Position numbers and translations under genes: made by a program | Shown here: piece after piece, positions 13,794 to 48,283 of the stretch | How positions within the stretch are numbered: position 1 is the first letter of the stretch | How the letters are laid out: every line of letters begins with the position of its first letter | Notes under the pieces: generated by a model | Database searches by the model: none | The model's input: only the letters and a program-made list of their open reading frames with translations | Told to the model about the DNA's origin: nothing | Source: Parcubacteria group bacterium | GTDB taxonomy: Bacteria; Patescibacteriota; Minisyncoccia; UBA10092 | Assembly (NCBI GenBank): GCA_016186325.1 | Contig: JACPLW010000002.1 | Location: forward strand, 66,290-130,289 | Direction: 5' to 3' | Length of the DNA: 64,000 nucleotides

Positions 13794-13889
13794 CCCGTTA
13801 GAAATTTAATTCTAAATAATAATTTTCACTATATCTTAAAACTATAAACAATATATCCTGTTAAATAACTAGTATAGATTTCTAACAGG
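13794..13889. repeat. long-range inverted-repeat pair CCCGTTAGAAAT ... 72 bp AT-rich spacer ... ATTTCTAACAGG (copy a); left arm abuts the rpmH start codon
   Basis: Left arm 13794-13805 lies immediately 5' of the rpmH ATG on the minus strand; right arm 13878-13889 has one substitution that is a G-U wobble only on the minus-strand transcript. Confidence 0.7.
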
Positions 13890-14060
13890 ACTCATACTTT
13901 TATATTTTTATAACACGAAAATTGATATTGCGTCAAACATTTAAATTAATTTATACTTTTCAACAGAGTACTCACAGGTTATTAACTTTTTTACGAATGA
14001 AAGTTTTCTTAAAACCCTTTTACTTAATGATATACTGGAAATGTAGAATTTATAATCAAC

Positions 14061-15440
14061 ATGGATTTCAATGAATTGTGGAAAGCGGTTCTAGGAGATA
14101 TAGAACTGCAAATTTCAAAAGCAAATTTTAAAACTTGGCTACAAAATACCGCTATTGTAGATAAAAAAGACGGTGTTGTTACTATTGCCGTACCTAATGG
14201 CTTTACTAAAGAATGGTTGGAAAACAAGTACAATAAGTCTATCCTAAGGTCTTTGAGAAACATTCAGTCGGACATTAAAGAAGTAACTTATCAAATCAGC
14301 CAAAAACAAACAAAAAACATTGACAATAATCAGAAGCTCTCTAAAGAGGAGGGTGCAATTTCAAAAAAACAGCTCGATTTTGTCGAACTTAACGCGGATA
14401 CAGAGACAAATTTAAATCCCCGATATGCCTTTGAAAATTTCATTGTAGGCCCATCGAATGAGCTGGCTCATGCCGCCGCTATTGCTGTAACTAAAAATTT
14501 AGGGAAAAAATACAATCCACTCTTTATTTACGGAGGAGTGGGCCTGGGTAAAACCCATTTAATTCAATCAATAGGCCAAGCCGTTAAAAAAGAGCACCCA
14601 AATAAGAAGGTGAAATATGTCACTTCCGAAAGGTTCACTTCAGAAGTGGTTTCTACTTTAAGATCCGGAGCATTAAGATCAAACGATATTGATAACTTTA
14701 AAAAAAGATGGCGCGAAATCGATTTGTTAATAATTGATGACATCCAGTTTTTAGCCGGTAAAGAAAGAACTCAAGAAGAATTCTTCCATATTTTTAACGC
14801 TCTCTACGATGTCGGAAAGCAAATAGTACTTTCGTCAGACCGGCCGCCAAAATCAATCCAAAACATGGAAGAGAGGTTGAGATCTCGCTTTGAAGGAGGC
14901 ATGCTTGCCGACATATCATATCCCGACCTCGAAACCAGAATCGCTATTCTAAAAACCAAGGCTCATGAGAAAGGATTTCAAGCTTCGGACGAAGCTTATG
15001 AATTTATAGCTTCTAACATAAAAAAGAATGTAAGAGAACTTGAAGGAGCTTTAAACCGGCTAATAATAAATCGCCGCGACGACCAAAAGGAATTAACAAT
15101 AGTGGAAGTAAAGAAAAGTTTAAATTCAATTATAAATACCCCTAAAAAAATCACTACATTAAAAAACATTATTAAGGCCGTCGCGGAATTTTACGATATT
15201 AGTGAAAAAGACCTTTTAGAACGCTCCAGAAAAAAAGAAATAGTCAAACCTAGACAAATAATAATGTACCTTTTAAGAGAAGAATTAAAAAGTTCTTTCC
15301 CTTTTATCGGGATGAAAATTGGAGGACGGGATCATACTACTGCCATTCATGCGTGTGAAAAAATAAAAAAAGAACTCGATTCTAATCCGACTTTATGTGA
15401 TGAAATTAATGTAATAAGAGAAAAACTTTACCTTGTTTAA
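14061..15440 (+). CDS. dnaA: chromosomal replication initiator DnaA
   Basis: AAA+ Walker A GGVGLGKTHL, box VII and sensor motifs, C-terminal DNA-binding domain; dnaA-dnaN synteny. Confidence 0.95.
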   Translation: MDFNELWKAVLGDIELQISKANFKTWLQNTAIVDKKDGVVTIAVPNGFTKEWLENKYNKSILRSLRNIQSDIKEVTYQISQKQTKNIDNNQKLSKEEGAISKKQLDFVELNADTETNLNPRYAFENFIVGPSNELAHAAAIAVTKNLGKKYNPLFIYGGVGLGKTHLIQSIGQAVKKEHPNKKVKYVTSERFTSEVVSTLRSGALRSNDIDNFKKRWREIDLLIIDDIQFLAGKERTQEEFFHIFNALYDVGKQIVLSSDRPPKSIQNMEERLRSRFEGGMLADISYPDLETRIAILKTKAHEKGFQASDEAYEFIASNIKKNVRELEGALNRLIINRRDDQKELTIVEVKKSLNSIINTPKKITTLKNIIKAVAEFYDISEKDLLERSRKKEIVKPRQIIMYLLREELKSSFPFIGMKIGGRDHTTAIHACEKIKKELDSNPTLCDEINVIREKLYLV

Positions 15441-15696
15441 AATTTTGTGGAAAAACTGGTTACAAACCAATAAATAACTGTGGGTTAATAAGTGATTAAA
15501 AAGTTTATAAATTTAATTTTTAATTTAATACTAAAAACTAGAAACAGAGTATTACCAAGTTATTCACAAAATTATTAACATGATAATAAGAGAAAAAGGG
15601 CTTAAATAACAAATAAATAAAACTTATACACTTAAAAATCACTGTTTAATAATAATAAGTTATAAAAAATAAATAATAGTTAATGATAATATAAAA
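15441..15696. promoter_or_regulatory. putative oriC: AT-rich dnaA-dnaN spacer with DnaA-box-like 9-mers
   Basis: TGTGGAAAA (1 mismatch to TGTGGATAA), TTATTCACA (1 mismatch to TTATCCACA), TGTGGGTTA, TTATACACT, plus a long AT-only tract as a candidate unwinding element. Confidence 0.5.
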
Positions 15697-16824
15697 ATGA
15701 TTGTCACTTGTTTAAGAGAAAATTTAAAAGAAAGTTTGGATAATGCTTTAAGAATTATTAAATATAATTCTACTTTACCGATATTAAATAATATTTTAAT
15801 TACTACTGACAAAGGAAGATTAAGAATCTCTTCAACTGATTTGGAAATAGGTTTTTCTTCTTTAATATCTTCAAAAATTGAAAAAGATGGCAGTATAACA
15901 GTGCCGGCCCAATTATTAAGCCAATTTGTTAATAATTTACCAAATAAACAAATAACTCTTGAGGAAAAAAATTTAAAACTACACTTGAATTGCGATAATA
16001 TTAAAGCGTCTATAAATGGCCTAAATGCCGGTGATTTTCCAATTATTCCAAAATTGAAAAGTTCTTCGGTTTTGAATATAAACTCAAAAATTCTTAAAGA
16101 CGCTTTATCAAGCGTAATTAATTCATCTGCTTTGTCTGATAGCCGTCCGGAAATCTCAAGTATTTATATAAGGATTGAGCCGGATCAAATTAAGTTTATC
16201 GCTACAGATAGTTTCCGTTTGGCGCATAAAACTTTATTTCTGTCGGAAGAAATGAAAAAAAAGGTGAAAATAGACATTTCTAGATTACAGAACATTATTT
16301 TACCTTTACGAACCGCAAGTGAAGTAGTGAGAATATTAGGAGATAATGATAGCGATGTTGAAATTATAATTGATCAGAATCAAATTAAATTTTCTTTTAA
16401 TGACACATTTCTCGTTTCACGATTGGTTGAAGGAAGTTACCCTGATTATGAAGCTATTATTCCAAAATCGTTTGAAACTAAATGTTATTTTTCAAAGAAA
16501 GACTTGGAAGAAGTTGTAAAACTGGCTGGATGTTTTTCTACCCGCCTTAATGATATGATTTTAAAAACAAGTTCCAGTAAATCATATCTTGAGGTTTCTT
16601 CAAACCATGCCGAGTTCGGAAATCATGAAGCGAGAATAAACTCGGAAGTTGAGGGTAAGGATGTTAATATTGTTTTCAACTGGCGTTATGTTTTAGATGG
16701 TTTAAAAAACATGAGCGAAGATGATATTATTTTTGAATTTAATGGCGATCAAAAGCCGGCAATGATTAAGCCTGTAAAAGAAACGGATTTTTTTTACATT
16801 TTAATGCCGATAAAAAACTCATAA
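15697..16824 (+). CDS. dnaN: DNA polymerase III beta sliding clamp
   Basis: 375 aa; typical DnaN N-terminus (LDNALRIIKYNSTLPILNNILI) and three-domain length; follows dnaA. Confidence 0.9.
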   Translation: MIVTCLRENLKESLDNALRIIKYNSTLPILNNILITTDKGRLRISSTDLEIGFSSLISSKIEKDGSITVPAQLLSQFVNNLPNKQITLEEKNLKLHLNCDNIKASINGLNAGDFPIIPKLKSSSVLNINSKILKDALSSVINSSALSDSRPEISSIYIRIEPDQIKFIATDSFRLAHKTLFLSEEMKKKVKIDISRLQNIILPLRTASEVVRILGDNDSDVEIIIDQNQIKFSFNDTFLVSRLVEGSYPDYEAIIPKSFETKCYFSKKDLEEVVKLAGCFSTRLNDMILKTSSSKSYLEVSSNHAEFGNHEARINSEVEGKDVNIVFNWRYVLDGLKNMSEDDIIFEFNGDQKPAMIKPVKETDFFYILMPIKNS

Positions 16825-19083
16825 ATCAGCAGAGCTGTTGTCGTAATCCTTTGGAAGTTGGTTATAAATGCTAGCGTAGTTGTTTTTCAGCCAATTTTGC
16901 AAAGAGTTTTCCCAGTTTTTATATTGAGAATCGTTTTCTATATTAGGATACGTGTTGCCTTGCGGGTCGTTTTTATTCACCCAGTACAAAATTTCATGGA
17001 TTTCGGTAAAACTTCTTTCTTCAATTAAGTTGGCCGGAGTTTTTTCAGTTGCCAAAAGCCCGCTGGTTTTATTCACTTTCAGTTTTGTTGATATTTGGTA
17101 TTGGCCATTTAAGATCGGTTTTTCTGTGATAATAGGATTAGGCTTTGTAAAACTTTCCATTGGCGTGTCTTTTAATGCTTGAACCATAAATTCATTCCAT
17201 ATAGGCCCGGCAGCCATAACACCCGCGCCGCCTTTTTCAATCGGAGTATTATTATTGTTGCCGGCCCAAACTCCGACTGCGAGCGATGGTGTGTATCCTA
17301 CAATCCAAGCGTCTCTTGCTTTTGTTTCTTCCGTGGGATCTTGAGTAGTGCCGGTTTTTGCCGCTACCTTTCGCTCACCGAGCGACAGCGGGCTGTACAA
17401 CCCGAACATCGGTGCCCGGGCGTTATTATCAGAAAGAATATCGTTAATCGTTCTCGCAACCTGTTCATTCATAACTTTTTGGCCATCATTTTTATATTCT
17501 TCGAGTATCCGGCCATTCCCGTCTTCAACCTTGATAATCCCTGTTGGGTTGTGCTTTACGCCTTCTTGACTGAAAACCCCAAAAGCCGAAACCATTTCCA
17601 AGAGCTTGACTTCTGCACTCCCTAAGACCAGAGAGAGGCCGTAGCGAGAGCGGTCTTTCAGAGTGGTTATTCCCATGCTTTCCGCGGTACTTATTGAGTC
17701 ATTCATGCCGGCAAGATAAAGAACTTTAACGGAGGGGAGATTTAAGGAATTGGATAGAGCCTGTTTTAAAGTGACCGGCCCCCTGAATCTACCGTCATAA
17801 TTTTTCGGGTGATAACAGGTTTGCTGATCAATGCCAGGTTCTGCGATTCCATTCCATGAACACAACGGGTTAAACTCGGTGGGAACATCCCAAATCACCG
17901 TATCCGGCGTAAAACCATTATTAATGGCCGTAGCGTAAACAAAAGGCTTGAAAGATGATCCCGGCTGGCGCAAACTTGTTGCTAGATTGACGTTTGGTTC
18001 GAATTGGCAGCTTTTTCCCGGCTCGCAATTTTTTGGTTCCGGCTCTCCCCAGTAGTTTTTTGATCCGACCATTGCAAGAATCTGGCCGGTTTTTGGATCA
18101 ATGGCTACTAGGGCGGCGTTTTTGGTGTTGTAAACTTCATTGCGCTTGGCGCCTTCTTCGACTGCTTTTTCGGCGATTTCTTGAAAACTAAGGTTCAGAG
18201 TGGTGGTTACCTTCAGACCCCCTTTTTCCACGAAGTCTTCGCCGTACTTGTCATTCAAGTATTCTCTTATGAACATTACAAAATGCGGAGCGACAATACT
18301 GGTTTTTTGGGCAACAAAGTTAACGGTCGTCTTTTTTGCTTTTTCGAAATCTTCATCGGAAACGTGTTTCAAATCTTGCATCCGGCTTAAAATGTAGTTT
18401 GCCCGCGACTTCAGTTCGTTGGCATGTGTTCCATATGGCGAATAATAAGATGGAGCTTTGGGAAGGGCGGTTAAGTAAGCGGCCTCCGCCAAGTTGAGTT
18501 CTTTGGCCGGTTTATTAAAGTAAGTCAATGAAGCAGCTTCAATACCATAAGCGTTTGAACCATAAGGAATTTGATTCAAATAAAAATCAAGTATTTCATT
18601 TTTAGAATATTTTCTTTCCAATGCTACCGCTAAAATGATTTCCTTTATTTTTCGACTGAAGGTGCGCTCGGAAGTAAGGTAAGTGTTTTTGATAAGTTGT
18701 TGAGTAATGCTCGAACCGCCTTCGGTTATTTTATTGCCTTTTATGTCGGCGAGCACCGCTCGAAAAATGCCGCGAAAATTGATGCCTGAATGCTTGTAAA
18801 AATCAGTGTCTTCGGCCGCTATGGTGGCATCTTTTACAATTTGCGGAATTTGATCAAAAGGAATGACGGTACGCTTCTCTTCTCCGTGAATCTCATAAAG
18901 AAGAACCTTATTTTCGTGATCGTATATTTTAGTTGATTGAACAATTCTTCTATTCTGCCAAGCATTGGGATCGGGAAGAAAGCGGCTGTAATAGAAAAAA
19001 ACTGAAATAAACAAAACAATCGCTACGAAAAGCGAGATGATGCTCCAAAAGACAATGTGAGAGAGTATTTTTCGCTTACCCAT
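16819..19083 (-). CDS. mrcA: class A penicillin-binding protein 1A (glycosyltransferase plus transpeptidase)
   Basis: GT51 motifs EDTDFYKHSGINFRG and GGSSITQQLIKN; transpeptidase SSFKPF; N-terminal TM anchor. Confidence 0.9.
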   Translation of the reverse strand: MGKRKILSHIVFWSIISLFVAIVLFISVFFYYSRFLPDPNAWQNRRIVQSTKIYDHENKVLLYEIHGEEKRTVIPFDQIPQIVKDATIAAEDTDFYKHSGINFRGIFRAVLADIKGNKITEGGSSITQQLIKNTYLTSERTFSRKIKEIILAVALERKYSKNEILDFYLNQIPYGSNAYGIEAASLTYFNKPAKELNLAEAAYLTALPKAPSYYSPYGTHANELKSRANYILSRMQDLKHVSDEDFEKAKKTTVNFVAQKTSIVAPHFVMFIREYLNDKYGEDFVEKGGLKVTTTLNLSFQEIAEKAVEEGAKRNEVYNTKNAALVAIDPKTGQILAMVGSKNYWGEPEPKNCEPGKSCQFEPNVNLATSLRQPGSSFKPFVYATAINNGFTPDTVIWDVPTEFNPLCSWNGIAEPGIDQQTCYHPKNYDGRFRGPVTLKQALSNSLNLPSVKVLYLAGMNDSISTAESMGITTLKDRSRYGLSLVLGSAEVKLLEMVSAFGVFSQEGVKHNPTGIIKVEDGNGRILEEYKNDGQKVMNEQVARTINDILSDNNARAPMFGLYSPLSLGERKVAAKTGTTQDPTEETKARDAWIVGYTPSLAVGVWAGNNNNTPIEKGGAGVMAAGPIWNEFMVQALKDTPMESFTKPNPIITEKPILNGQYQISTKLKVNKTSGLLATEKTPANLIEERSFTEIHEILYWVNKNDPQGNTYPNIENDSQYKNWENSLQNWLKNNYASIYNQLPKDYDNSSADL

Positions 19084-19202
19084 TTATTTTAATATTTATA
19101 CAACACAAACCTCAAAAAATCAACCTCGATTTAGCCTTACCTCATATTTATGTATAAGTATGGGGTTCACAAATTAGCCATCATCTGATATGTTAAATTG
19201 AT

Positions 19203-20408: not shown

Positions 20409-20426
20409 TAAAAGACGCGGATTAAA

Positions 20427-20462
20427 ACAAATCTCGCCCTGCAGTTGCGGGGCGAGATTTGT
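20427..20462. terminator. bidirectional rho-independent terminator (family CCCCGCAGTTGCGGGG)
   Basis: ACAAATCTCGCCCTGC-AGTT-GCGGGGCGAGATTTGT, a 16-bp stem flanked by T/A runs between convergent tyrS and the ruvC operon. Confidence 0.7.
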
Positions 20463-20463
20463 T

Positions 20464-20649
20464 TTACAATTCCTCGGCATCGGGTTCTTCGGATTCATCA
20501 AGCTCTTCGAGCTCGTCAAAACCAGTCTCTTTTACTCCAGGGTTTTTTGACTTTTCCTCGTCTTCGCCCAGCTCTTTAACCAATCCATCTTCGAGTTCCG
20601 TGTCTAAGTCAGCATCTTCACTTTGACTGTATGGATGTTTTTTGTCCAT
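20464..20649 (-). CDS. small highly acidic hypothetical protein (61 aa)
   Basis: D/E-rich ORF downstream of ruvC and ending 2 nt before the terminator; weak RBS; could be spurious. Confidence 0.3.
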   Translation of the reverse strand: MDKKHPYSQSEDADLDTELEDGLVKELGEDEEKSKNPGVKETGFDELEELDESEEPDAEEL

Positions 20650-22273: not shown

Positions 22274-23293
22274 TTATAATAAATTAGGATTTTCCGGCGG
22301 AAGCCGGAGTCCTAAATGTTCGTAAGCGAATTTGGTTGCGATGCGGCCGCGGGAGGTTCTCTGTAAAAATCCTATTTGTAAAAGATATGGTTCGTAAATG
22401 TCTTCAATGGTATCAAGCTCTTCGGAAGTGGCGGCCGCGAGTGCCTGAAGGCCGACCGGCCCACCGTTAAATTTTTTAATAATTGCATCAATTAAACGCC
22501 GATCGGTTGATTCAAGCCCTATTGCATCAACTTCCATTAAGTGAAGCGCTTTTTTGGCGATTTCCTCGTTGACTATCCCATCTCCTTCCACTTCGGCATA
22601 ATCGCGCACTCTTTTTAAAAGCCGATTAGCCACCCGCGGGGTAAATCTTGATGACTGGGCAATTAATTTTAAAGCTTCGGGTTCGGCTTGAAGATTCATA
22701 AGGTTGGCCGATCTTTTTAAAATATTTTGAATATCTTCAATCCCGTAAAAATCTAATCTAAAGGTGGCGCCGAAGCGGGAGCGCAGGGGATTTGATAATA
22801 ATCCGGCGCGGGTAGTGGCCGCGATAAGTGAAAATGCCGGTAAGTCCAATTGAAGAGTTCTGGCCGACGGTCCTTTGCCGATGATAATGTGGAGCATCCG
22901 GTTTTCCATTGCCGGATAAAGAATTTCTTCAACCGTTTTGTTCAAGCGGTGAGCTTCGTCAATAAACAAAATGTCGCCGGAATTAAGGTTGGTCAAAATT
23001 GAAGCCAGATCCCCAACTTTTTCAATAGCCGGACCGGAGGTAATTTTAATATTGGCGCTCATTTCCCTCGCTATAATGTAGGCCAAAGTGGTTTTTCCCA
23101 AGCCGGCCGGCCCATACAAAAGCAGGTGATCTATGGATTCAGACCGTTTTTTTGCCGCTTCAATCAGGATTTTTAAACCCGTTTTAACCTTCTCTTGGCC
23201 GATGTATTCGCTCCAATCGCGAGGCCTTAACGACTGGTCTAAAGTGCGGTCTTCGGGCTTTAGTTTTTGACTTGTAGTACTGTTAAGTTCCAT
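22274..23293 (-). CDS. ruvB: Holliday junction branch migration ATPase RuvB
   Basis: AAA+ Walker [12 protein letters not shown], sensor motifs, RuvB C-terminal winged helix; 339 aa. Confidence 0.95.
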
Positions 23294-23298
23294 TTGAT

Positions 23299-23397
23299 CC
23301 CGTTAGAAATCTAATTTAATTATATTAAATTTGCATTTTTATAAACTCATGAGTTGATTATCCGCCTCGCTTTGACTAAACATAAATTTCTAACGGG
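23299..23397. repeat. inverted-repeat pair CCCGTTAGAAAT ... 75 bp spacer ... ATTTCTAACGGG (copy b), 5 nt upstream of the ruvB start codon
   Basis: Perfect 12-bp arms at 23299-23310 and 23386-23397. Confidence 0.75.
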
Positions 23398-23639
23398 ATT
23401 GACAATCTCACTTAATTTAAGTATAATATAAAAATATGGCATCAGTTGTTCCTAATAACCTCGAGGCAATAAAGACTCTATTTTAAACCATAAGGTCTTT
23501 CTGGGGGCTTTTCCATGTCGGGTGATCTGGTTCCGATTGGATCATTGCACAACTTAGTCCTATCCCTTCAAGCTGGCTTGAAGGACCATTGCCTCGAGAT
23601 TATTAGGCGCAAGTCTACTCCGATTATTTATGAGATTTT

Positions 23640-25533: not shown

Positions 25534-25983
25534 ATGATTGAAGCAATCTCCAAATCGGCAAACGAGACAAAAAAGATTGCGGTCTCGCTAGCGGAAAAGA
25601 TAAAAAAGCGGCCGCTTTCAAAAGTAGCGCTTATTATTGCTTTGGAAGGCGATTTGGGCTCCGGTAAAACCACCTTTATCCAAGGGTTGGCTCAAGAACT
25701 GGGAGTTGAGGAAAACATTTTAAGCCCGACTTTCGTGATTCAAAAAGATTTTCCGCTTTCTTTAAAAAATTTTAAAAACCTTTATCACATTGACGCTTAC
25801 CGGTTGAAGAATCCGCTGGAACTTCTGGAACTTGGATTTGAAGACTTAATCAAAAATCCGGAAAATCTCATTGTTATCGAATGGGCTGATAAAGTTAGAA
25901 AGATTTTGCCAGAAAACATTTTAAAAATAAAACTTGTTAATTTAAAAGGCAGTAAAAGAAAGATTCAAATTTTCAATTTCTAA
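25534..25983 (+). CDS. tsaE: tRNA t6A37 biosynthesis protein TsaE
   Basis: P-loop LEGDLGSGKTTFIQGLA; start chosen at MIEAIS (ORF-track start at 25459 is probably an extension). Confidence 0.75.
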   Translation: MIEAISKSANETKKIAVSLAEKIKKRPLSKVALIIALEGDLGSGKTTFIQGLAQELGVEENILSPTFVIQKDFPLSLKNFKNLYHIDAYRLKNPLELLELGFEDLIKNPENLIVIEWADKVRKILPENILKIKLVNLKGSKRKIQIFNF

Positions 25984-26099
25984 TTTTCAATTTTCAATCA
26001 ATGATACAATTTAACAATTTTCAATTAATTCTTTATTGTTTGAAAATTAAATCATTGAAAATTCAATGAAAATTGCAAATTGAGAATTAAAAATTATTT
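25984..26099. repeat. AT-rich intergenic repeat (TTTTCAATTTTCAATCAATGA ... TCATTGAAAATTCAATGAAAATTGCAAATTGAGAATT), copy 1
   Basis: About 110 bp, nearly identical in order and sequence to 31031-31150; partly palindromic; upstream of polA. Confidence 0.7.
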
Positions 26100-30751: not shown

Positions 30752-31030
30752 TTACAATTTATTGACGATTTTGGTTAGACGGGATTTCATTCGACTGGCG
30801 GTGTTCTTTTTAAGAAGATTATTTTTTACTGACTTGTCCAGAGCCTTGTAAACTTTTGGCAAGAACTCGATCGCGCCCTTTTTAGCTTTGGCTGTTATTA
30901 GTTTTTTTAGCGCCGCAAGCTCGCCTTTAAGAAGGCGTGATTTATTTAGATTATTCTTTCGTTGCCTTTTGTTTTTTCTTAAGGCCTTTTTAGCCGCTTT
31001 TGTTATTGGCATGTTTTTAATAATTTTCAA
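30752..31030 (-). CDS. rpsT: 30S ribosomal protein S20
   Basis: Basic helical protein MPITKAAKKALRKNKRQRKNN; true start may be the internal Met at 31012. Confidence 0.8.
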   Translation of the reverse strand: MKIIKNMPITKAAKKALRKNKRQRKNNLNKSRLLKGELAALKKLITAKAKKGAIEFLPKVYKALDKSVKNNLLKKNTASRMKSRLTKIVNKL

Positions 31031-31150
31031 TTTCTAATTTTCAATTTTCAATCAATGATTTAATTTTTAATTTTCAAACGTTTGAAAACTGGGCTATTGA
31101 AAATTCAATGAAAATTGTAAATTGAGAATTGTAAATTGATTATATATACA
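31031..31150. repeat. AT-rich intergenic repeat, copy 2 (same family as 25984-26099)
   Basis: TAATTTTCAATTTCTAATTTTCAATTTTCAATCAATGAT ... ATTGAAAATTCAATGAAAATTGTAAATTGAGAATT in the rpsT/ruvA divergent promoter region. Confidence 0.7.
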
Positions 31151-34533: not shown

Positions 34534-35304
34534 ATGGCCAAAGCAATAACAATTTGTAACGCCAAAGGCGGAGTCGGAAAGAGTACTACCGCCGTTAATC
34601 TTGGCGCCTATCTCGCAGCTTTGGGAAAATATGTTTTACTTGTTGATTTAGACCCTCAAGCCAATGCTACGGTCGGCCTGGGAGTAGATTGGCGCAAGCT
34701 TGAAAAACACATTTACCATTCGCTTATTGATTTTGAGAGTCCGGAGGGGATTATAAGAAAAACCGGCCTTTTCGGATACGACGTTCTCCCGGCCAATCCG
34801 GCTTTGGCCGGCGCCAATGTTGAACTTGTGAATTTGGAAAGGCGAGAATGGAGGCTTTATGATATTTTAAGGAAAATAAGAACCAATTATGATTACATTA
34901 TTGTTGATTCGCCGCCGTCACTAGGTCTTTTAACCTTGAACGGTCTGGTGGCAGCTGAAGAAGTCATTATTCCAGTTCAATGCGAGTATTATTCCTTGGA
35001 AGGCTTGGGCCAGCTTCTTGAAACAATTGAATTAATACGTAATAATTTAGGGCGGGATTTGAAAATCAAGGGCGCGCTTCTTACGATGCACGACAAAAGG
35101 CAAAAGTTAAGCCGGGAAGTGGTTAAGGAAATAAGAAGGAATTTCCCGGGTTATGTTTTTTCGGCAGTTATTCCCCGGTCGGTGCCGCTCGCCGAGGCGC
35201 CCAGTTTTGGCAGGACTATTCTCCAGCACGCGCCATTTTCTTTAGGAGGCCATTCTTATCGGGAACTGGCCCAAGAAATTATCAACTTAGATAAATCCCG
35301 TTAG
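34534..35304 (+). CDS. parA: chromosome partitioning ATPase ParA/Soj
   Basis: Deviant Walker A KGGVGKSTTAVNLGAYLA; 256 aa; followed by parB. Confidence 0.9.
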   Translation: MAKAITICNAKGGVGKSTTAVNLGAYLAALGKYVLLVDLDPQANATVGLGVDWRKLEKHIYHSLIDFESPEGIIRKTGLFGYDVLPANPALAGANVELVNLERREWRLYDILRKIRTNYDYIIVDSPPSLGLLTLNGLVAAEEVIIPVQCEYYSLEGLGQLLETIELIRNNLGRDLKIKGALLTMHDKRQKLSREVVKEIRRNFPGYVFSAVIPRSVPLAEAPSFGRTILQHAPFSLGGHSYRELAQEIINLDKSR

Positions 35305-35393
35305 AAACTTTACATTATCAGACAAACTTAGTGTAAAATAGCAACTATTAATATAATTATAATTAAGAAAAATCTAGTTAGGTTTCTAACGGG
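35298..35393. repeat. inverted-repeat pair CCCGTTAGAAAC ... 72 bp spacer ... GTTTCTAACGGG (copy c) filling the parA-parB spacer
   Basis: Left arm contains the parA TAG stop; right arm ends 19 nt before the parB ATG; the arm variant (AAAC/GTTT) is compensatory, so complementarity is preserved. Confidence 0.75.
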
Positions 35394-35412
35394 ATAAACA
35401 AAACAATCACAT

Positions 35413-36328: not shown

Positions 36329-38026
36329 TTAAATTTTATAACCCACTTCTTTCACGCTTTTAATCTTTTTTATCGCGAAGATAAGCTCTTCAAGTTTTTG
36401 TTTGTTTCTTGATTCAAGTGAAAAATTTAAGTAGTGATACGGATCTTTTCCTCCCTCGCTTTTTACCGAAAGAATATTTATCTTGTGAAAAGAAATCGCG
36501 TTAGTCACATCTTTCAAAATGCCGATGCGGTCGCGCACAACCACTCGCAATTTAATCGCGGGGATTATTTTCACGTTTTTATTTTCTCCGCCTATAGCGG
36601 AATTTTTTGATTTTATGGCGCTTTTTATTCTTTCTTTGGCTAAGTTTGTTTTCACAAAGCCAAGCCAATCTTCTGACGGCCTTTTATTTTTCTGAACTAA
36701 AATTTCCACTGCGTCTCCCGACTGGAGTTCGGTGTTTAGCGGTACTATTTTTCCATTTATTTTGGCGCCGGAGCATTCGTGGCCGATAGTGGTATGAACC
36801 TGATAGGCAAAATCAACCGGGGTCGCCCCTTCGGGGAGATCTAAAACGTCTCCTTTGGGAGTTAAAACAAAAATCCGGTCTTTGAAAAAATCGATTTTTA
36901 GCGATTCGAAGAATTCGTCCGTGCCACGGACGGCGTGTTGCCACTCCCGCAACTGTTCAATCCATAATAATTCTTTTTTCAATATTTCGGGGTTGCGATT
37001 GTTATATTGCTGTTCCTTATAAGCCCAATGGGCGGCAATTCCATTTTCGGCTTTGGCATGCATTTCCGGCGTTCGGATTTGGATTTCGGTTATTTTCCCC
37101 TCCGGCCCGAAGACAGAAGTATGCAAACTTTGATAGCCGTTTGGTTTCGGCATAGAAATGTAATCTTTAATAAGTCCCGGCACCGGTTTCCAGGTCTGGT
37201 GGATGGCGCCAAGGGTAAGATAACAGTCTTCAATATCTTTTACGATTATGCGGGCGGCGACAAGATCGTGGATTTTATCGAAATTCATCTGGTGGCGGAG
37301 CAATTTTTTATATAAGCTGTAAAAATATTTTGTCCGCGCGTTAATTTCTAACGGGGTTACGTTTTCCTTTTTTAAGATTTCATAAATAACTGGCGTGAGT
37401 TTTTTTATATAATTTTTACGCGTCTCGTACTTTTCTGACACTTCATTTTCCAAGTGGCCATACTCTTCCGGATACAGGTGCTTGAATGCCAAGTCCTCAA
37501 GTTGCCCTTTTAAGTCCCCCATTCCTAAACGATTGGCCAAGGGCGCGTAAATTTCCAAGGTTTCCAAAGCGATCTTTTTTTGATTCGTCTCTTCTAAAGC
37601 GTCCAAAGTCTGCATATTATGGTAGCGATCGGAAAGTTTTATTAGAATTACTCTAATGTCTTGTGCCATTGCCAAAAGCATTTTTCGTAAGTTTTCTGCT
37701 TTGCCTTCGACACCAATGTATTGGATTTTGTTAAGCTTAGTTACTCCGTTAACAAGGAAGGCAACGGCCTTCCCAAACTGCGCCTCAATGTCGCTAATGG
37801 TGTATTCGCTATCTTCAACCACGTCGTGAAGCAGGGCGGCAGCTATAGTTTCGGTGTCAAGATTCATTTTCGTAAGCGCCAGCGCTACACTTAGAGGGTG
37901 TTGAATATATGGTTCGCCACTCTCTCGTTTTTGTCCTTGATGGGCTTTCCACGCCAGTTCGTAAGCTCTCTTGATAAGAGCTCTTTCTTCCGAATTTTGA
38001 AAATAAGTAAGAATTTTTTCTAGCAT
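36329..38026 (-). CDS. rel: bifunctional (p)ppGpp synthetase/hydrolase, RelA/SpoT family (compact, 565 aa)
   Basis: HD hydrolase motif HPLSVALAL...LLHDVVEDS, synthetase motif QIRTPEMHAKAENGIAAHWAYKE, TGS and C-terminal ACT-like region. Confidence 0.85.
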   Translation of the reverse strand: MLEKILTYFQNSEERALIKRAYELAWKAHQGQKRESGEPYIQHPLSVALALTKMNLDTETIAAALLHDVVEDSEYTISDIEAQFGKAVAFLVNGVTKLNKIQYIGVEGKAENLRKMLLAMAQDIRVILIKLSDRYHNMQTLDALEETNQKKIALETLEIYAPLANRLGMGDLKGQLEDLAFKHLYPEEYGHLENEVSEKYETRKNYIKKLTPVIYEILKKENVTPLEINARTKYFYSLYKKLLRHQMNFDKIHDLVAARIIVKDIEDCYLTLGAIHQTWKPVPGLIKDYISMPKPNGYQSLHTSVFGPEGKITEIQIRTPEMHAKAENGIAAHWAYKEQQYNNRNPEILKKELLWIEQLREWQHAVRGTDEFFESLKIDFFKDRIFVLTPKGDVLDLPEGATPVDFAYQVHTTIGHECSGAKINGKIVPLNTELQSGDAVEILVQKNKRPSEDWLGFVKTNLAKERIKSAIKSKNSAIGGENKNVKIIPAIKLRVVVRDRIGILKDVTNAISFHKINILSVKSEGGKDPYHYLNFSLESRNKQKLEELIFAIKKIKSVKEVGYKI

Positions 38027-38031
38027 TATAA

Positions 38032-41406: not shown

Positions 41407-41460
41407 GGGTGGGCGAAAGTCCTTTTACATATATGCTAAAAAAACAGAGAGGGAAAGATA

Positions 41461-43221: not shown

Positions 43222-44798
43222 AAGCCGTAAAGGCAGTTTTTGTTCTCGGGCTGTTATTATTCGTTTCTGCTTGTGCTCGTCCGACCTTTGTGGTCGCACG
43301 AGACGAAGCTATTGATCCGAGTGGCGAATTTAAATACAACCGCAAACAGGCAGAAATTGCCGCTGAACGCGCGGTTCTTATGCTCGCCGCGACTTATAAA
43401 GATGGTAAATGGGAGTTAAAGCGCGATATTGTAAAAGTTGAAGAGATGAAAAAACTTTTGACGGATAGAGCCAAATCGCTGGACTTGCTCTTGCGATATG
43501 ATGATAAGTGGTCCGCACGTTTTATTGATTGGCTAAAGGGCATGCGTCCGGCCATTGAACAAGAGGAGCGGGCGACTCTTTGGGCTCTTCAGCAAATTCA
43601 ACTAGTTCATACTTATAACGAATTTGTAGATCTGGTTGGTCATTTGCCCAAAGAACTTATTGGTAGCGACACAGAGTATTTTTTTGAGCATAGCCCAAAA
43701 AACTATTCTATTAGGATGTTATATCCAGCGAAGGATATCGCCCAGATTCCATTTACGGCCAGTTATTTAGAGGAAGCCAAGAAACAAAACAAGCTTAAGT
43801 TGGTGGACAGCTTTACTGTTTTGGATTCACAGAACTATAGCGAAAAAATTCCTGATTTTGAAGATGCCAATAAATTCTCGTGGGATAAGCGCGAACGTGG
43901 CTGGACTATTTTGTCTTATAAAATCACCGCGACGAGCGATCGTCCCAATGACAATGTCGTTCAGTACATTGAAGTTTTCCGAGTAGACGCTAATACGCTG
44001 AAAATAGAAGAACTTCCGGCTTTACGTGGATTCCTCGCCGCAGGCGCGAGCAATACTACTGTTTTTATTCTTGATTATGATAAGGCCGGAGAAAACGGCT
44101 TTGGTAGCCCTGATGCGGTGAAAAAAATTTTACAGAATATCATCACCGGCCGAGATCTTTACGATAACGAAAGTTTGCGTAAAGATTTATTGGTTGAGCT
44201 TTACGAGCGGCCAAGAAATAACAAGGATCGGCCGGAACGCAGACGCCCGCCGGATCCGCCGGTATATGTTGAGATTGTCCCCATGGGCAAGAAACTTAAA
44301 GTTGACATTTGGGAAATGAAGAAAGAAGGATGGAACGTTCCGATTTCTTTCAAGGACCTCTTCAAAAATCTTGAGGTAGTATATGGTAAGCCCGACAAAG
44401 ACGATCTGGAGAAAATCAAGTCAGGTCAAATTACCGGTGATCTGAAAAAGATCTCTTTGTTAATTCGTGAGTTTAAGATGTCCGGGGAAACGGTTGTCGT
44501 TGAATATTGGAAGCCGAAGGCTGAATATTTGAAGATGAACGTGCGTTCAATTACCGGAGGCATCGGAGCGAGCGCCACGTACACTTTGCAGAGAAAAGGA
44601 TTTCCGAAAGAAGAGGCCGAAATAGAATATTTTGGAGATAAAATCACTCAGGTTGATTACTTCTACGGCGGTTTGTGGTTTCGTATAGTTGATGAAGACG
44701 GCGATGGTACTTTTGAAAAAAGACGCCAAATCGCCGATCCGACTAAATCATATAAAAACACGCAAGCTGTTCACAGTAATTATGGCGATTTTAATTAA
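43212..44798 (+). CDS. lipoprotein, hypothetical (co-transcribed with the HExxH protein)
   Basis: Lipobox LFVSAC after the signal peptide; 10-nt overlap with the upstream gene; 528 aa. Confidence 0.5.
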   Translation: MAMKAVKAVFVLGLLLFVSACARPTFVVARDEAIDPSGEFKYNRKQAEIAAERAVLMLAATYKDGKWELKRDIVKVEEMKKLLTDRAKSLDLLLRYDDKWSARFIDWLKGMRPAIEQEERATLWALQQIQLVHTYNEFVDLVGHLPKELIGSDTEYFFEHSPKNYSIRMLYPAKDIAQIPFTASYLEEAKKQNKLKLVDSFTVLDSQNYSEKIPDFEDANKFSWDKRERGWTILSYKITATSDRPNDNVVQYIEVFRVDANTLKIEELPALRGFLAAGASNTTVFILDYDKAGENGFGSPDAVKKILQNIITGRDLYDNESLRKDLLVELYERPRNNKDRPERRRPPDPPVYVEIVPMGKKLKVDIWEMKKEGWNVPISFKDLFKNLEVVYGKPDKDDLEKIKSGQITGDLKKISLLIREFKMSGETVVVEYWKPKAEYLKMNVRSITGGIGASATYTLQRKGFPKEEAEIEYFGDKITQVDYFYGGLWFRIVDEDGDGTFEKRRQIADPTKSYKNTQAVHSNYGDFN

Positions 44799-44883
44799 TA
44801 AAACTCAAAAGCGTCTCGTTATTAAACGAGACGCTATTTTTTTGGTGTCATCTATTCTATTTTGGGTTTTAACCTTAATAGGT

Positions 44884-45456
44884 TTATTGAGAGCCGCTCG
44901 TCAGCCCCGACGGTACCGTCGGGGCCAGTTGGCGGATGGCTTTTTTTATGGTCTTATCAAGTTCTTTTAATTCTTCGGGCGTGAATTTTTTTAATATTAT
45001 CTTATCCGCTTTTACTCTTGTATTTTGCTTGCCCGCCGACTTGTCCGCCAAAGCTTTGGCGTCGGCGGAAGCTTTAGCGAAGGCGGGTTGGATGCCGATT
45101 CTCAAGCGCCAGAAGTTTTTTGTTTTAAGATTTTTTATTATGGATTCAACACCCTTGTGGCCCGCCGAAGAACGACCGAAAGAAAGTTTGAAATTGCCCC
45201 ACAAGATATCAATGTCGTCATGAGCAATTAAAACATTTTCCGGCTTTATCTTAAATTTTTTCATCAAAGCCAAAACCGCCGCTCCGGATTTATTCATAAA
45301 AATCCCAGTTTTAGCTGAAACAACTTTTTTGTTTTTATAATTATTTTCTAAAGCATCAATAAATAAAAAGCCTGCGTTGTGCCTGGTGAGCTCATATTCT
45401 TTTCCGGGATTGCCAAGCCCGATGATTAATTTGACCCCGTTAGAAATTTTATTCAT
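44884..45456 (-). CDS. pth: peptidyl-tRNA hydrolase
   Basis: LIIGLGNPGKEYELTRHNAGF catalytic motif (His-Asn); C-terminal region contains in-frame repeat elements (45031-45088) and a palindromic tail CCCCGACGGTACCGTCGGGG. Confidence 0.85.
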   Translation of the reverse strand: MNKISNGVKLIIGLGNPGKEYELTRHNAGFLFIDALENNYKNKKVVSAKTGIFMNKSGAAVLALMKKFKIKPENVLIAHDDIDILWGNFKLSFGRSSAGHKGVESIIKNLKTKNFWRLRIGIQPAFAKASADAKALADKSAGKQNTRVKADKIILKKFTPEELKELDKTIKKAIRQLAPTVPSGLTSGSQ

Positions 45457-45531
45457 AAAAATTCTTTAAGTTAAAATTAACAATTTGTATTGTATGCTTC
45501 ATTAGTTTAGATAAATAGATTTCTAACGGGG
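45435..45531. repeat. inverted-repeat pair CCCCGTTAGAAAT ... 71 bp spacer ... ATTTCTAACGGGG (copy d, 13-bp arms) in the pth/lepB divergent region
   Basis: Left arm lies inside the first codons of pth (MNKISNGV is encoded by ATGAATAAAATTTCTAACGGGGTC); the extra C/G is co-varied on both arms. Confidence 0.75.
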
Positions 45532-45628
45532 TTGATTTTATCCATTTTTAGTATATAATTATCTGGTATTTTGTATATTGTATCTGGTATCTAGTATACC
45601 AAATACAAAATACCAAATACAAAATACA

Positions 45629-46183
45629 ATGATAAAATCATTTTTTAAGTTTAGCTGGGATTTAATCAAAGTAGCTTTAATAGCTCTCATTTTGGCCGGT
45701 ACGGTACGTTACTTTTTAGTCCAGCCGTTTTTTGTTGAGGGCGCTTCAATGGAGCCGAATTTTGAAACCGGCGAATATCTTTTGATTGATGAATTAAGCT
45801 ATTACTTCAGGGATATTAAAAGAGGGGAAGTTGTCGTCTTTCATTATCCGCTGGACACTTCCAAGTACTATATAAAAAGAGTTATCGGGCTTCCCAACGA
45901 AACTATAGAAATTAAAGACGGGAAAATTACTATTTACAATAGCAATAATCAAGAAGGATTTTTAATATCCGAGGATTATATTCCGTCAAACTTTGTAACA
46001 GAGGGCAATATCAAAAAAAAATTAAGTAAAGACGAATATTTTGTCTTGGGCGACAATCGTCCGTCTTCTTCCGATTCAAGACGCTGGGGAGTTTTGCCAA
46101 AGATTGATGTTGTGGGCCGTGTTTTTTTGAGAGCCTGGCCGTTTGACCGCGCAAGTATTTTTGAAACACCAAATTATCAATAA
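45629..46183 (+). CDS. lepB: signal peptidase I
   Basis: Catalytic Ser box GASMEPNF and Lys box, GDNRPSSSDSRRWG; start chosen at MIKSFF because the ORF-track start at 45578 lies inside a 25-nt palindrome. Confidence 0.85.
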   Translation: MIKSFFKFSWDLIKVALIALILAGTVRYFLVQPFFVEGASMEPNFETGEYLLIDELSYYFRDIKRGEVVVFHYPLDTSKYYIKRVIGLPNETIEIKDGKITIYNSNNQEGFLISEDYIPSNFVTEGNIKKKLSKDEYFVLGDNRPSSSDSRRWGVLPKIDVVGRVFLRAWPFDRASIFETPNYQ

Positions 46184-46193
46184 TCATAAGAAA

Positions 46194-47552
46194 ATGTCAC
46201 GAAAAGCTAAAATAAAAACATTTCAAGCCCCGAAAGGGATGCACGACATTCTTCCAAATGTCCATAAGTATTGGGACAAATTTTTCAAAATTACCAGGGA
46301 ATTGGCCGTTTTTTATGGTTTTGAAACAATTGAAACTCCTGTAGTGGAATACGCCGATTTATTTAACAAAGGGCTTGGCCTTAACACCGATGTCGTTGAA
46401 CATGAAATGTATACTTTAAAAACCAAAGGCGGCGACTTTTTGGCTTTGCGGCCCGAACTTACCGCCGGGGTTGTAAGGGCGTATCTTGAAAACGGATTTC
46501 CCAATCAGCCTCAACCGATTAAATTTTTTCATTTTGGTCCGGTATTTAGGCATGAATCGCCGCAAGCCGGGCGTTATCGCGCCTTCCACCAGGCTGATTT
46601 TGACGTTTTCGGCGAAGAGGACGCCGTAGTTGACGCGCAGGTCATTCAGCTTATTTATGCGATTCTTTCGGAGCTCGGGTTAAAAAATCTTTCTATTCAA
46701 ATAAACAGCATCGGTGACAAAAACTGCTGGTTAAAATTCCGCGAGGAGTTAAAAATGTATTACCGGAACAAAATTTTGAGGCTTTGCAATAATTGTAAAA
46801 AGAGGGTGAAGGAAAATCCATTGAGGATGCTTGACTGCAAAGAAGAAGAATGTGCGGCCTTGAAATCTTCGGCACCGAACTCTGTTGATTACCTTGATAA
46901 GACCTGTCATGATCATTTTAAGTTGGTTTTAGAGTTTTTAGACGAGATCGGCCTTCCTTACAGTTTGAATCCTTACCTTGTTCGCGGTCTTGATTATTAT
47001 ACCCGAACGGTTTTTGAAATAGTTTCGGAAAACGCAAACGGATCGCCGGTGGCTTTAGCCGGAGGCGGCCGTTATGATTATTTAGTATCCCAGTTGGGTG
47101 GCAAACTGACGCCGGCAATGGGCGGTTCTATCGGCATTGAAAGGGCTATTATTGAAATGCAGCGGCAGGAAGTGAAAGTAAGTGCGGCAAGGCCGAAAAC
47201 TCGGATATTTTTGGCACAACTTGGCGATTTGGCGAAGAAGAAAAGCTTGAGGCTTTTTGAAGAATTCCGGAGAAACAATATCAATGTTTCAGAGTCGTTC
47301 GGGCGCGACTCCGTTAAGGCCCAATTGCGGGTTGCCGACCGGCTCGGCGCCGACGTAGCGCTTATAATCGGCCAAAAAGAAGCGCTTGACGGCACTATAA
47401 TGTTAAGGGAAATGCAATCCGGCGTTCAGGAAATAATCCCCTCGGATAAAATTATTGATGAAGTTAAAAAGCATCTTAAAAGAATAGTGCCGAGGATGCC
47501 GTTGACTAATAATGAAATTGATGATAAAGATGGTAAAAAAACAGAGTTCTAA
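46194..47552 (+). CDS. hisS: histidyl-tRNA synthetase
   Basis: Class II motifs, HisRS-specific MHDILP, C-terminal anticodon-binding domain; start at MSRKAKI. Confidence 0.85.
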   Translation: MSRKAKIKTFQAPKGMHDILPNVHKYWDKFFKITRELAVFYGFETIETPVVEYADLFNKGLGLNTDVVEHEMYTLKTKGGDFLALRPELTAGVVRAYLENGFPNQPQPIKFFHFGPVFRHESPQAGRYRAFHQADFDVFGEEDAVVDAQVIQLIYAILSELGLKNLSIQINSIGDKNCWLKFREELKMYYRNKILRLCNNCKKRVKENPLRMLDCKEEECAALKSSAPNSVDYLDKTCHDHFKLVLEFLDEIGLPYSLNPYLVRGLDYYTRTVFEIVSENANGSPVALAGGGRYDYLVSQLGGKLTPAMGGSIGIERAIIEMQRQEVKVSAARPKTRIFLAQLGDLAKKKSLRLFEEFRRNNINVSESFGRDSVKAQLRVADRLGADVALIIGQKEALDGTIMLREMQSGVQEIIPSDKIIDEVKKHLKRIVPRMPLTNNEIDDKDGKKTEF

Positions 47553-47553
47553 A

Positions 47554-47886
47554 ATGGATTGTATCTTTTGTAAAATTGTAAAAAAAGAAATTCCGGCGGA
47601 CATAGTTTTGGAAGACAATGAAATGATGGCTTTTAAAGACATTCGGCCAAAAGCTCCGGTTCACTTGCTGATTATTCCGAAAAAGCACATCGGCCCGATA
47701 AACGAGCTTGATTCAGAAAACAGCGCAATTATAGGCCAGTTAACTTTAAAAGCAAAAGAGGCGGCGGAAAAAATGGGAGTTTCGGAAAATGGTTATCGCC
47801 TGGTGTTTAATGTCGGCAAGGATGCCGGTATGGAAGTTGACCATTTGCATATGCATCTTCTTGCCGGAAAATTGTTACCATTTTAG
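47554..47886 (+). CDS. HIT-family (histidine triad) nucleotide hydrolase
   Basis: Zinc-ribbon CIFCKI and histidine triad HLHMHLL; start at MDCIFC. Confidence 0.8.
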   Translation: MDCIFCKIVKKEIPADIVLEDNEMMAFKDIRPKAPVHLLIIPKKHIGPINELDSENSAIIGQLTLKAKEAAEKMGVSENGYRLVFNVGKDAGMEVDHLHMHLLAGKLLPF

Positions 47887-47944
47887 AAATTAGAATTTAT
47901 CTGGCTTCGCCAGATCTCGCGAAGCGAGAGAAATTTACAACTAC

Positions 47945-48184
47945 ATGCCTATTGAAGTGAAAAAAAAAGAAGGAGAAAGCGCATCAAGCCTTTTAAGGCG
48001 TTTCTCAAAACGCGTCCAGCAAAGCGGTGTTCTGATAAGGGCTCGCAAGGGCCGTTTTTACCTGTCAGAGCCGACTAAACGTCAAAAGAGGTTAGGCGCT
48101 TTGCGGCGGCTTAAAAACCAAAAAGAAAGAGAAAAACTCTATAAATTGGGCAAATTGCCTCCGGAAAAGAAATTTAGGCGTTAA
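47945..48184 (+). CDS. rpsU: 30S ribosomal protein S21
   Basis: 79-aa basic protein MPIEVKKKEGESASSLLRRFSKRVQQSGVL with S21-like pattern. Confidence 0.75.
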   Translation: MPIEVKKKEGESASSLLRRFSKRVQQSGVLIRARKGRFYLSEPTKRQKRLGALRRLKNQKEREKLYKLGKLPPEKKFRR

Positions 48185-48185
48185 T

Positions 48186-48283
48186 CCCGTTAGAAATCTA
48201 AGTTGGTGGACTAATGGGGGAATATAAAAATTTCGTAGTTATTATAGAAATCGAATCATTATTTAACATAAATTTCTAACGGG
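48186..48283. repeat. inverted-repeat pair CCCGTTAGAAAT ... 74 bp spacer ... ATTTCTAACGGG (copy e) filling the rpsU-yqeY spacer
   Basis: Left arm starts 2 nt after the rpsU stop; right arm ends at the base immediately before the yqeY ATG. Confidence 0.75.

Follow-up and report, generated by a model that had tools for sequence, protein, structure and literature searches.

Short inverted-repeat pairs in a Parcubacteria genome as probable MITE-like insertions of a family associated with a small GIY-YIG nuclease

Results and Discussion

The replication-origin region (rpmH-rnpA-yidC-jag and dnaA-dnaN) of a Parcubacteria/Azambacteria-like metagenome-assembled genome (MAG) contains five pairs of short inverted repeats, designated a to e, within the 64-kb stretch of DNA that was analysed as a whole and is referred to here as the window (64,000 nucleotides; contig JACPLW010000002.1, positions 66,290 to 130,289). 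It is highly probable that they represent five separate insertions of a short, non-autonomous element resembling a MITE (miniature inverted-repeat transposable element), from a family with a GIY-YIG nuclease as its likely mobiliser. As judged from sequence, the pairs are mobile DNA insertions with 13-bp terminal inverted repeats and a 4-bp target-site duplication, and those relatives of the elements that contain an open reading frame (ORF) carry only a GIY-YIG gene. The nuclease would then be the best candidate for the mobilising enzyme and would act on the short copies in trans.

Inverted-repeat pairs in the window

The 12-mer CCCGTTAGAAAY is present in 10 exact copies on the two strands of the window, against 0.04 ± 0.20 in dinucleotide shuffles, which agrees with the claim of an earlier model-made note on this DNA (the sequence-only reading) that a 12-mer is expected far less than once by chance. 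Nine of the exact copies and one arm with a single mismatch (CCTGTTAGAAAT, in copy a) form five convergent pairs, with arm-to-arm spans of 13794-13889 (a), 23299-23397 (b), 35297-35393 (c), 45436-45530 (d) and 48186-48283 (e). The pairs listed by the sequence-only reading are real and their coordinates are off by 1 nt at most; the first position of copy c is 35297, and the interval 45435-45531 given for d already includes its extra C/G pair. The tenth exact 12-mer, at 37344-37355 on the minus strand, lies within a RelA/SpoT gene, where it encodes TPLEI. This copy is a coding coincidence and not an element, because a relative has APLEI in different codons.

The full repeat measures 13 bp and includes a terminal Y/R pair outside CCCG/CGGG. 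This pair is C..G in d and T..A in the other four copies. The C/G pair that had been regarded as an extension of the arms of d is present, but it corresponds to this terminal pair, which is found in all five copies. The elements are thus 97-101 bp long, with an AT-rich interior bounded by the 13-bp terminal inverted repeats YCCCGTTAGAAAN / NTTTCTAACGGGR and an end consensus of 5'-Y CCCGTTAGAAA N ... N TTTCTAACGGG R-3'. The repeats are perfect in four of the five copies and contain one mismatch in copy a. In copy c the innermost arm position is altered on both sides (C/G; arms GAAAC/GTTTC), the coordinate change that had been noticed before. No copy has an ORF beyond a few codons. The spacers of a to e comprise 72, 75, 73, 71 and 74 nt, with a GC content of 17-27%, and show no significant mutual similarity in either orientation (all z < 3), so the description of them as non-conserved and 71-75 nt long holds. 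The five copies are dispersed over the 64 kb at unrelated loci. Pfam searches confirmed the flanking genes for L34, RuvB, ParA, ParB, S21 and YqeY, as well as a signal peptidase, and the identity of Pth was confirmed via its homologues.

Empty sites in relatives

Two relatives with a DnaA 93% identical to that of the window (L123 and L124) and a 78% relative (L125) are collinear with it over rpmH-dnaA and ruvB, and copies a and b are exactly absent from them. At site a, the window reads TTTTA-CTCA-[T CCCG...CAGG A]-CTCA-TACTT and the relative TTTTACTCATACTT, with a single CTCA; the empty site in L123 and L124 reads GGTTTTACTCATACTTTT. At site b, CCAT-TTGA-[T CCCG...CGGG A]-TTGA-CAAT in the window corresponds to CCATTTGACAAT in the three relatives, with a single TTGA, and the empty site in L123, L124 and L125 reads CTCCATTTGACAAT. 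Site d is element-free in another relative (L130; Pth 74% identical), which reads ATGAATAAAATCAAATTAATC, and the minus strand of the window reads ATGGATAAAA-TCAA-[C CCCG...CGGG G]-TCAA-ATTAATC. At site e, the stop of S21 and the ATG of yqeY are just 8 nt apart in L130 and L132. About 100 kb of the relatives' DNA contains no arms at all; relatives of a 528-aa neighbouring protein were not syntenic and yielded no empty sites. The insertions are therefore recent and lineage-specific and, according to these alignments, postdate the split from the relatives with 93%-identical DnaA.

Target-site duplications of 4 bp flank four of the five window copies (CTCA in a, TTGA in b, TAAA in c and TTGA in d). 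A duplication of 6 bp is ruled out by the empty site of b, and one of 2 bp by perfect 4-bp repeats with non-T/A ends. The window copies share with MITEs a size below about 500 bp, the lack of a coding gene, terminal inverted repeats, the 4-bp duplication, and empty sites for a, b and d. The MITE option of the sequence-only reading is borne out by the duplications and by the empty orthologous sites in close relatives; of the two features by which it would have recognised a simple MITE family, a conserved spacer and target-site duplications, the duplications are present and the conserved spacer is not.

The same comparison bears on two further proposals of the sequence-only reading, namely that the arms are paired operator half-sites of a global regulator or DNA-uptake sequences of a competent lineage. 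The marked over-representation of the 12-mer and an arm spacing of about eight helical turns would suit either function, as would the competence genes that the sequence-only reading lists. However, the orthologous promoters of close relatives lack the sites, the arms come in convergent pairs with duplications and are not scattered singly (of the ten exact copies nine are paired, one of them with the mismatched arm, and the lone one is the coding coincidence described above), and the identical sequence stands beside unrelated genes in many phyla. Both functions are extremely improbable.

Insertion sites and host genes

Element a (13793..13890, 98 bp) consists of a terminal T, the arm CCCGTTAGAAAT, a 72-nt AT-rich interior, the arm ATTTCTAACAGG with its one mismatch, and a terminal A. 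It is flanked by CTCA at 13789-13792 and 13891-13894 and is inserted within the start codon of rpmH, so that the present ATG, the reverse complement of 13791-13793, is composed of the terminal base of the element and 2 nt of the duplication. Element b (23298..23398, 101 bp, termini T..A) is flanked by TTGA at 23294-23297 and 23399-23402. On one side of it is the minus-strand ATG of ruvB (23291-23293) and on the other a divergent promoter of consensus sequence (TTGACA-17-TATAAT, 23399-23427), whose TTGACA -35 box is kept intact by the duplication. The ruvB ATG is located 5 nt past the arm (terminal A and TCAA) and is now separated by the element from its former upstream DNA.

Element c (35296..35394, 99 bp, arms GAAAC/GTTTC, termini T..A), with TAAA at 35292-35295 and 35395-35398, is inserted seven codons ahead of the reconstructed parA stop. 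The parA gene has lost its last reconstructed codons and ends at a TAG within the left arm of the element, and the parB ATG lies 19 nt downstream of c, as had been stated. The empty site, reconstructed from the window sequence and not from a relative, encodes a ParA ending in NLDKQNNHI and has an ATGA overlap of parA and parB that is gone in the present window.

Element d (45435..45531, 97 bp, termini C..G; TTGA at 45431-45434 and 45532-45535) interrupts the 5' coding end of pth on the minus strand, after codon 4. The annotated start codon (45454-45456) falls within the element, and the ancestral one is located upstream of this element-borne ATG. In the NCBI annotation (P0125), pth occupies 44884-45456 on the minus strand and its protein begins with MNKISNGVKLI, the first seven codons being encoded by the element, versus MNKIKLI or MDKIKLI in relatives. 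Beside d, just upstream of the signal peptidase gene, a 31-nt near-perfect palindrome of TACAAAATAC-like units is found at 45560-45627; microRNA-model matches there were weak and were dismissed as noise.

Element e (48185..48284, 100 bp, termini T..A) is flanked by TTAA, which includes the rpsU stop, and by TGAC, without a duplication. The yqeY start codon (48284-48286) is formed by the terminal A of the element and the flanking TG, and the rpsU TAA ends 1 nt before the left arm. The sequence-only reading had an arm touching the start codons of rpmH, ruvB, yqeY and pth. This applies to rpmH and yqeY, through the terminal A and TG, but the ruvB ATG is 5 nt away and that of pth lies within the element. 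Its observation that upstream arms contain or follow the preceding stop codon is correct for parA (c) and rpsU (e).

Streamlined genomes of Patescibacteria thus tolerate recent insertions within the start codon or the coding end of essential genes such as rpmH, pth and parA, because the ends of the element rebuild the signals. Such insertions account for odd annotated N-termini, e.g. the MNKISNGV of Pth, and caution against taking repeats of this kind for regulatory sites. As presence/absence markers, the elements could be of use in the strain-level population genetics of groundwater bacteria.

The family in other genomes

An exact scan of one genome per species with the pattern CCCGTTAGAAA-N60-88-TTTCTAACGGG returned at least 120 loci. 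All of them are in MAGs, which belong to many classes of Patescibacteria and to Omnitrophota, Planctomycetota, Desulfobacterota, Nitrospirota/Thermodesulfovibrionales, Edwardsbacteria, Stahlbacteria, Bdellovibrionales and other groups; complete genomes rich in these elements include CP011215.1 and CP113000.1. No pair with these arms was found among 2.9 million viral contigs. In the listed loci the arms are nearly always arranged as convergent pairs, at spacings of 5 to about 280 nt, and clustering of the ORFs near 120 of the loci revealed no recurrent neighbouring gene. Some lineages have conserved interiors, such as a GC-rich family common to several Deltaproteobacteria. In a Bdellovibrionales MAG (L045, 5058-5165) the arms enclose a complete tRNA-Ala(CGC) gene, with no flanking duplication.

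The statistics on short copies refer to 156 non-redundant copies (158 in the start-codon count) among the matches listed. Identical 4-nt flanks are found in 91 of the 156, versus 13.5 in flank shuffles. The commonest duplications are TTTA/TAAA, TTCA/TGAA and TTGA, TTAA occurs once in the 91, and the consensus is T-N-N-A; cases with non-T/A ends include CTCA, TGAG and CCCG.

Tandem or nested elements at L011 7674-7895, L106 6125-6230 and L071 161-286 share the intervening 4-bp flank (TTCA three times in L011), which suggests that the DNA adjoining an existing element end may itself be a preferred target. Copies with identical interiors in DX4.bin27 were considered as a transposition burst and rejected, being in fact part of a 320-bp segmental inverted duplication. 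At L006 2046-5155, a 320-bp inverted duplication with one element per arm encloses a segment of 2.4 kb, which codes for a secreted protein of 686 aa and may be invertible.

The two ends of an element are matched to each other. The terminal pair is complementary in 94% of the 156 short copies (97 C-G and 48 T-A), and the innermost 13th position (index 12), which was free in the search, in 85%, with four pair types; the positions fixed by the search pattern are complementary in about 100%, a value that is not informative, and from index 13 onward complementarity falls to about 30%, the background. Mismatches within the arms do not favour G-T over C-A. Together with the 100% complementarity of a variable position in the 88 nuclease-bearing copies described below, these values agree with the suggestion of the sequence-only reading that there is selection on pairing or on symmetric recognition.

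In gene-sense RNA all five window elements fold as an arm-closed hairpin (-25 to -32 kcal/mol, z -2.9 to -6.1), and in a and e the start codon stands at the 3' foot of the stem. These features, along with the complementarity of the variable arm positions, would fit hairpins with a cis-acting RNA function, original or acquired, in 5' untranslated or intercistronic regions, serving as processing sites, as stabilisers or as structures that juxtapose upstream ribosome-binding signals with the start codon, with selection keeping the arms paired. We consider such a role quite unlikely. The same essential genes lack the element in close relatives, unlike the situation expected of a conserved RNA leader or riboswitch; the interiors are unconserved; the elements are flanked by duplications and lie at unrelated genes in many phyla; and the mismatches favour G-U no more than C-A. 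Scans for promoters and terminators at a, b, d and e gave no signal within the elements above shuffles, and the strong promoters near b and d belong to the flanks. No Rfam family matched the elements, at the gathering threshold over the whole window and at E <= 1 around b, d and e, and a tRNA scan showed that the interiors in the window are not tRNAs. The 5'-UTR or intercistronic RNA switch and the two-half-site operator of the sequence-only reading are both unsupported in view of the relatives with 93%-identical DnaA, which lack the element, of the unrelated interiors and host genes, and of the absence of an Rfam match. One may speculate that the hairpin loops out the interior and brings the upstream copy of the target beside the start codon, which could be the reason why insertions are tolerated.

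Insertion at gene boundaries

Among the 158 short copies, 44 are followed by an ORF of at least 100 codons that starts exactly at the terminal purine and TG (35 ATG and 9 GTG), versus 0.6% at random positions. In the reconstructed empty sites the first start codon of the ORF is located one base ahead of the duplication, and the cut falls between A and TG. Other copies are found on TAAA, of which TAA is the stop codon of the upstream gene, just ahead of a Shine-Dalgarno sequence, or on TTGAC. Start, stop and -35 sites would be hit because a target R-TNNA-Y coincides with ATGAA starts, TAAA stops and TTGAC -35 boxes. In genomes nearly devoid of intergenic DNA, insertions would persist only where they fall precisely on a gene boundary. 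A preference for R-TNNA-Y combined with purifying selection in very compact genomes would thus explain the location of the elements, a reading that is in part shown by the counts above and in part our interpretation. The 4-bp duplication would leave a working copy of the signal on either side of the element, and the terminal purine together with the duplicated TG would rebuild an ATG or GTG.

Relatives with a GIY-YIG nuclease gene

The arms CCCCGTTAGAGAT...ATCTCTAACGGGG of locus L027, from an Omnitrophota MAG, surround 280 bp with the coding sequence of a GIY-YIG protein of 86 aa (Pfam PF01541, E = 5e-14). A metagenome scan with the pattern CCCCGTTAGA-N245-275-TCTAACGGGG gave at least 120 loci, with 117 unique segments of 265-295 bp among the matches listed, to which the counts in this section refer. 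The GIY-YIG profile matches 88 of the 117 segments, 85 of them uninterrupted, and the other 29 have no GIY homology. The typical element of about 280 bp comprises the 13-nt repeat, a median of 6 nt, an ATG with 83-88 codons and the right repeat, which takes part in the coding sequence. The last residues of the protein (LSLTG, NYLTG or FLTG) are encoded by the right repeat, or the ORF stops at a TAA within it (KGF as the last residues), and at least three different frame solutions are used for these C-terminal codons. The first three flank bases are TGA or TAA in 53 of the 88 GIY-bearing copies.

Covariation is seen at the free arm positions of the 88 copies. Complementarity is 100% at position 10, where four pair types occur, 97% at position 11 and 75% at position 12, and the background is reached thereafter. 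A host ORF starts within 30 nt downstream of the GIY ORF in 36 of 78 cases and on the other side in 8 of 78, and 14 of the 36 downstream ORFs start exactly at the terminal G, which results in a GTGA stop/start overlap.

The long and the short elements are linked in several ways. GIY elements of about 280 bp with the exact GAAAT arms of the window exist, e.g. in L158, L177 and L187, and the contigs with GIY-bearing elements also contain 46 short copies without an ORF. Within 1 kb, L158 has a GIY element together with two copies of 97-104 nt that bear the GAAAT arms of the window, and one of these short copies aligns to the last ~45 nt of the neighbouring GIY coding end. The autonomous partner expected of a MITE family may correspond to the elements of about 280 bp, which have the same repeats and encode the nuclease; the window contains none.

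The nearest solved relatives of the GIY protein are the UPF0213 proteins 1ZG2 (BH0048, E = 1.5e-8) and 1YWL (EF2693), with Slx1 weaker; accordingly, the arm-bounded ORF of about 85 aa resembles the small UPF0213/YhbQ-like GIY-YIG proteins and the Slx1 domain. Public records label the protein 'GIY-YIG nuclease family protein'. It has no separate DNA-binding domain, and it matches TIGR01453, the model of group I intron endonucleases, weakly and below the cut-off. More distant small GIY-YIG genes were observed at L102 5205-5441 and L003 4427-4651, between a duplicated 5' tRNA half and the full tRNA gene and without the CCCGTTAG arms; this setting of insertion differs from the arm-bounded one, although the protein family is the same.

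The short elements could instead be ordinary MITEs of an insertion sequence with a DDE transposase, e.g. an IS1380/piggyBac-like one, and the GIY-YIG gene a frequent passenger or an invading homing endonuclease gene. IS1380 has CC ends and a 4-5 bp duplication, and piggyBac has CCC ends and a TTAA target; the CCC...GGG termini, the ~13-bp repeats and the 4-bp duplication of the present family resemble those of both, and the piggyBac end CCCTAGAAAG looks similar to the family sequence CCCGTTAGAAA. Other cargo is also found between the arms, namely the tRNA-Ala gene in L045 and the 29 of 117 segments without GIY homology. On the other hand, no DDE transposase was seen between the repeats of the family in the sampled loci: 1.79 Mb of these loci, which are not a whole-genome census, contain no arm-bounded segment of 300-5000 bp, none of transposase size and no recurrent neighbouring transposase, and between 160 and 5000 bp only the GIY-YIG segment of L027 and two dubious ones were obtained. 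TTAA is almost absent from the duplications, with the single case in 91 mentioned above. The GIY ORF, moreover, is packed against both repeats and uses the right one as its C-terminal codons, which is the behaviour of the element's own gene and not of a passenger. A DDE origin of the family is, on balance, unlikely.

Mobilisation of the elements and comparison with known systems

Mobilisation by the GIY-YIG nuclease, as favoured here, might proceed as follows. The nuclease would recognise the ends as a 13-bp stem, in the form of a hairpin or a cruciform; stem recognition is proposed because the sequence is fixed in the outer ~10 bp, whereas pairing is all that is required of the 3 bp that follow (positions 10-12). 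Being related to structure-specific nucleases, it could then make 4-nt staggered cuts, the repair of which by the host would yield the 4-bp duplication.

Several points weigh against this reading. A nuclease by itself is not known to perform strand transfer, and the ends left by characterised GIY-YIG enzymes are short 3' overhangs and not 4-nt 5' staggers. A GIY-YIG profile search of the 64-kb window and of the relatives' loci gave no match, and with nhmmer no GIY remnant was detected in the interiors of the five window elements or of 147 other short copies. The inner-arm variants of a short copy and of the GIY copy on the same contig agree in 10 of 32 cases versus 5.1 expected, which is a modest excess. 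Copy e has no target-site duplication, and the flanks are unequal in 65 of the 156 short copies, often with TTYA on the left and TRAA on the right, an asymmetry that a plain cut-and-paste model does not predict. Recombination between neighbouring copies possibly accounts for unequal flanks, given that tandem and nested copies exist, although it does not predict the asymmetry either. Finally, the five interiors are unrelated yet nearly equal in length and are therefore not explained by a simple burst from one master copy; our best guess is a long-lived family with selection on the ends alone.

The family differs from the systems that it most resembles. The Correia/NEMIS elements of Neisseria are likewise about 100-150 bp long, have no ORF, possess inverted repeats and a short duplication, lie near gene starts and ends, and are co-transcribed with formation of long hairpins. 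In contrast to them, the duplication of the window family is 4 bp (TNNA) and not TA, only 13 bp per end are conserved around unrelated interiors, the termini are found in many phyla, and the ORF-bearing relative has a GIY-YIG gene and not a DDE transposase. REPIN-like doublets, in which two inverted REPs surround a variable spacer and are spread by a domesticated HUH transposase (RAYT), are similar in architecture: they too have two conserved arms in inverted orientation that can form a hairpin, with some 70 nt of poorly conserved spacer between them, and lie between genes. A REPIN origin is nonetheless very improbable. The elements have 4-bp duplications with empty sites, and HUH/Y1 transposition is not known to leave a target-site duplication; the arms lack a palindromic structure of their own, an internal hairpin and a GTAG/CGTC head; and the recurrent gene between the arms is the GIY-YIG nuclease and not a RAYT, the window ORFs having been scanned only in part for Y1.

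The free-standing and intron-borne homing GIY-YIG genes (I-TevI, Seg) are comparable in that a selfish nuclease gene spreads as a compact cassette. Homing copies the gene into one cognate site via flanking homology, whereas the family of ~280-bp elements occupies many unrelated loci with variable 4-bp duplications. Integron attC sites were also compared. The arms contain GTTAGAA / TTCTAAC, near the GTTRRRY / RYYYAAC core, and recognition of a paired stem seems to be shared; however, the polarity is reversed, with GTTAGAA ... TTCTAAC on both strands and not RYYYAAC ... GTTRRRY, and the neighbours are the housekeeping genes rpmH, ruvB, parA/parB, pth, rpsU and yqeY, without cassettes and with variable 4-bp duplications.

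Full-text searches of open-access papers and preprints yielded no description of the motif, of MITEs in Patescibacteria, or of a GIY-YIG protein in connection with terminal inverted repeats, target-site duplications or MITEs, nor any mention of small GIY-YIG proteins flanked by 13-bp inverted repeats or with a repeat-encoded C-terminus. We tentatively propose, at somewhat less than even odds, that the family represents an undescribed class of minimal autonomous element, about 280 bp in size, with 13-bp stem-forming repeats, a 4-bp duplication and, as its sole gene, a nuclease of ~85 aa that serves as the 'transposase'. Such elements would be distributed over at least half a dozen phyla and insert precisely at start and stop codons. 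The stop codon of the nuclease (TGA or TAA in the duplication) would overlap the rebuilt host start (RTGA), by which translation of the host gene would be coupled to the element, and the window copies would be ORF-less riders. The catalogued insertion-sequence families use DDE, DEDD, HUH, serine or tyrosine enzymes, and we know of none with a GIY-YIG enzyme. If the link to the nuclease is causal, these elements would thus be moved by a nuclease family outside the catalogued insertion-sequence families and would be among the smallest self-contained mobile elements.

Other features of the window and of related loci

A second, unrelated repeat family was observed at 25968-26095 and 31022-31137, where a 35-nt AT-rich unit AATTTTCAATTTCTAATTTTCAATTTTCAATCAAT has an inverted partner 46-58 nt away in each case.

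Between ruvB and the gene of a PilB-like ATPase, about 170 nt on the plus strand (23446-23612), lying behind the perfect TTGACA-17-TATAAT promoter, constitute a small-RNA candidate. No Rfam family matches the region, also at E <= 1. Sequence conservation is about 95% in the 93% relative and about 85% in the 78% one, and the predicted fold (-67.7 kcal/mol, z = -4.9) consists of three hairpins on a long closing stem.

In L123, positions 1-8183, which are syntenic with about 1-12100 of the window, harbour a type IV secretion-like cluster (TrbL, PrgI, TraC-like, a VirB4/TraG-type ATPase and a type IV secretion system pilin); in the relatives this cluster lies directly upstream of the jag-yidC-rnpA-rpmH origin block. 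A diversity-generating retroelement (bAvd and a reverse transcriptase) is located at L130 6398-7813, between hisS and the gene of an HIT protein, near pth.

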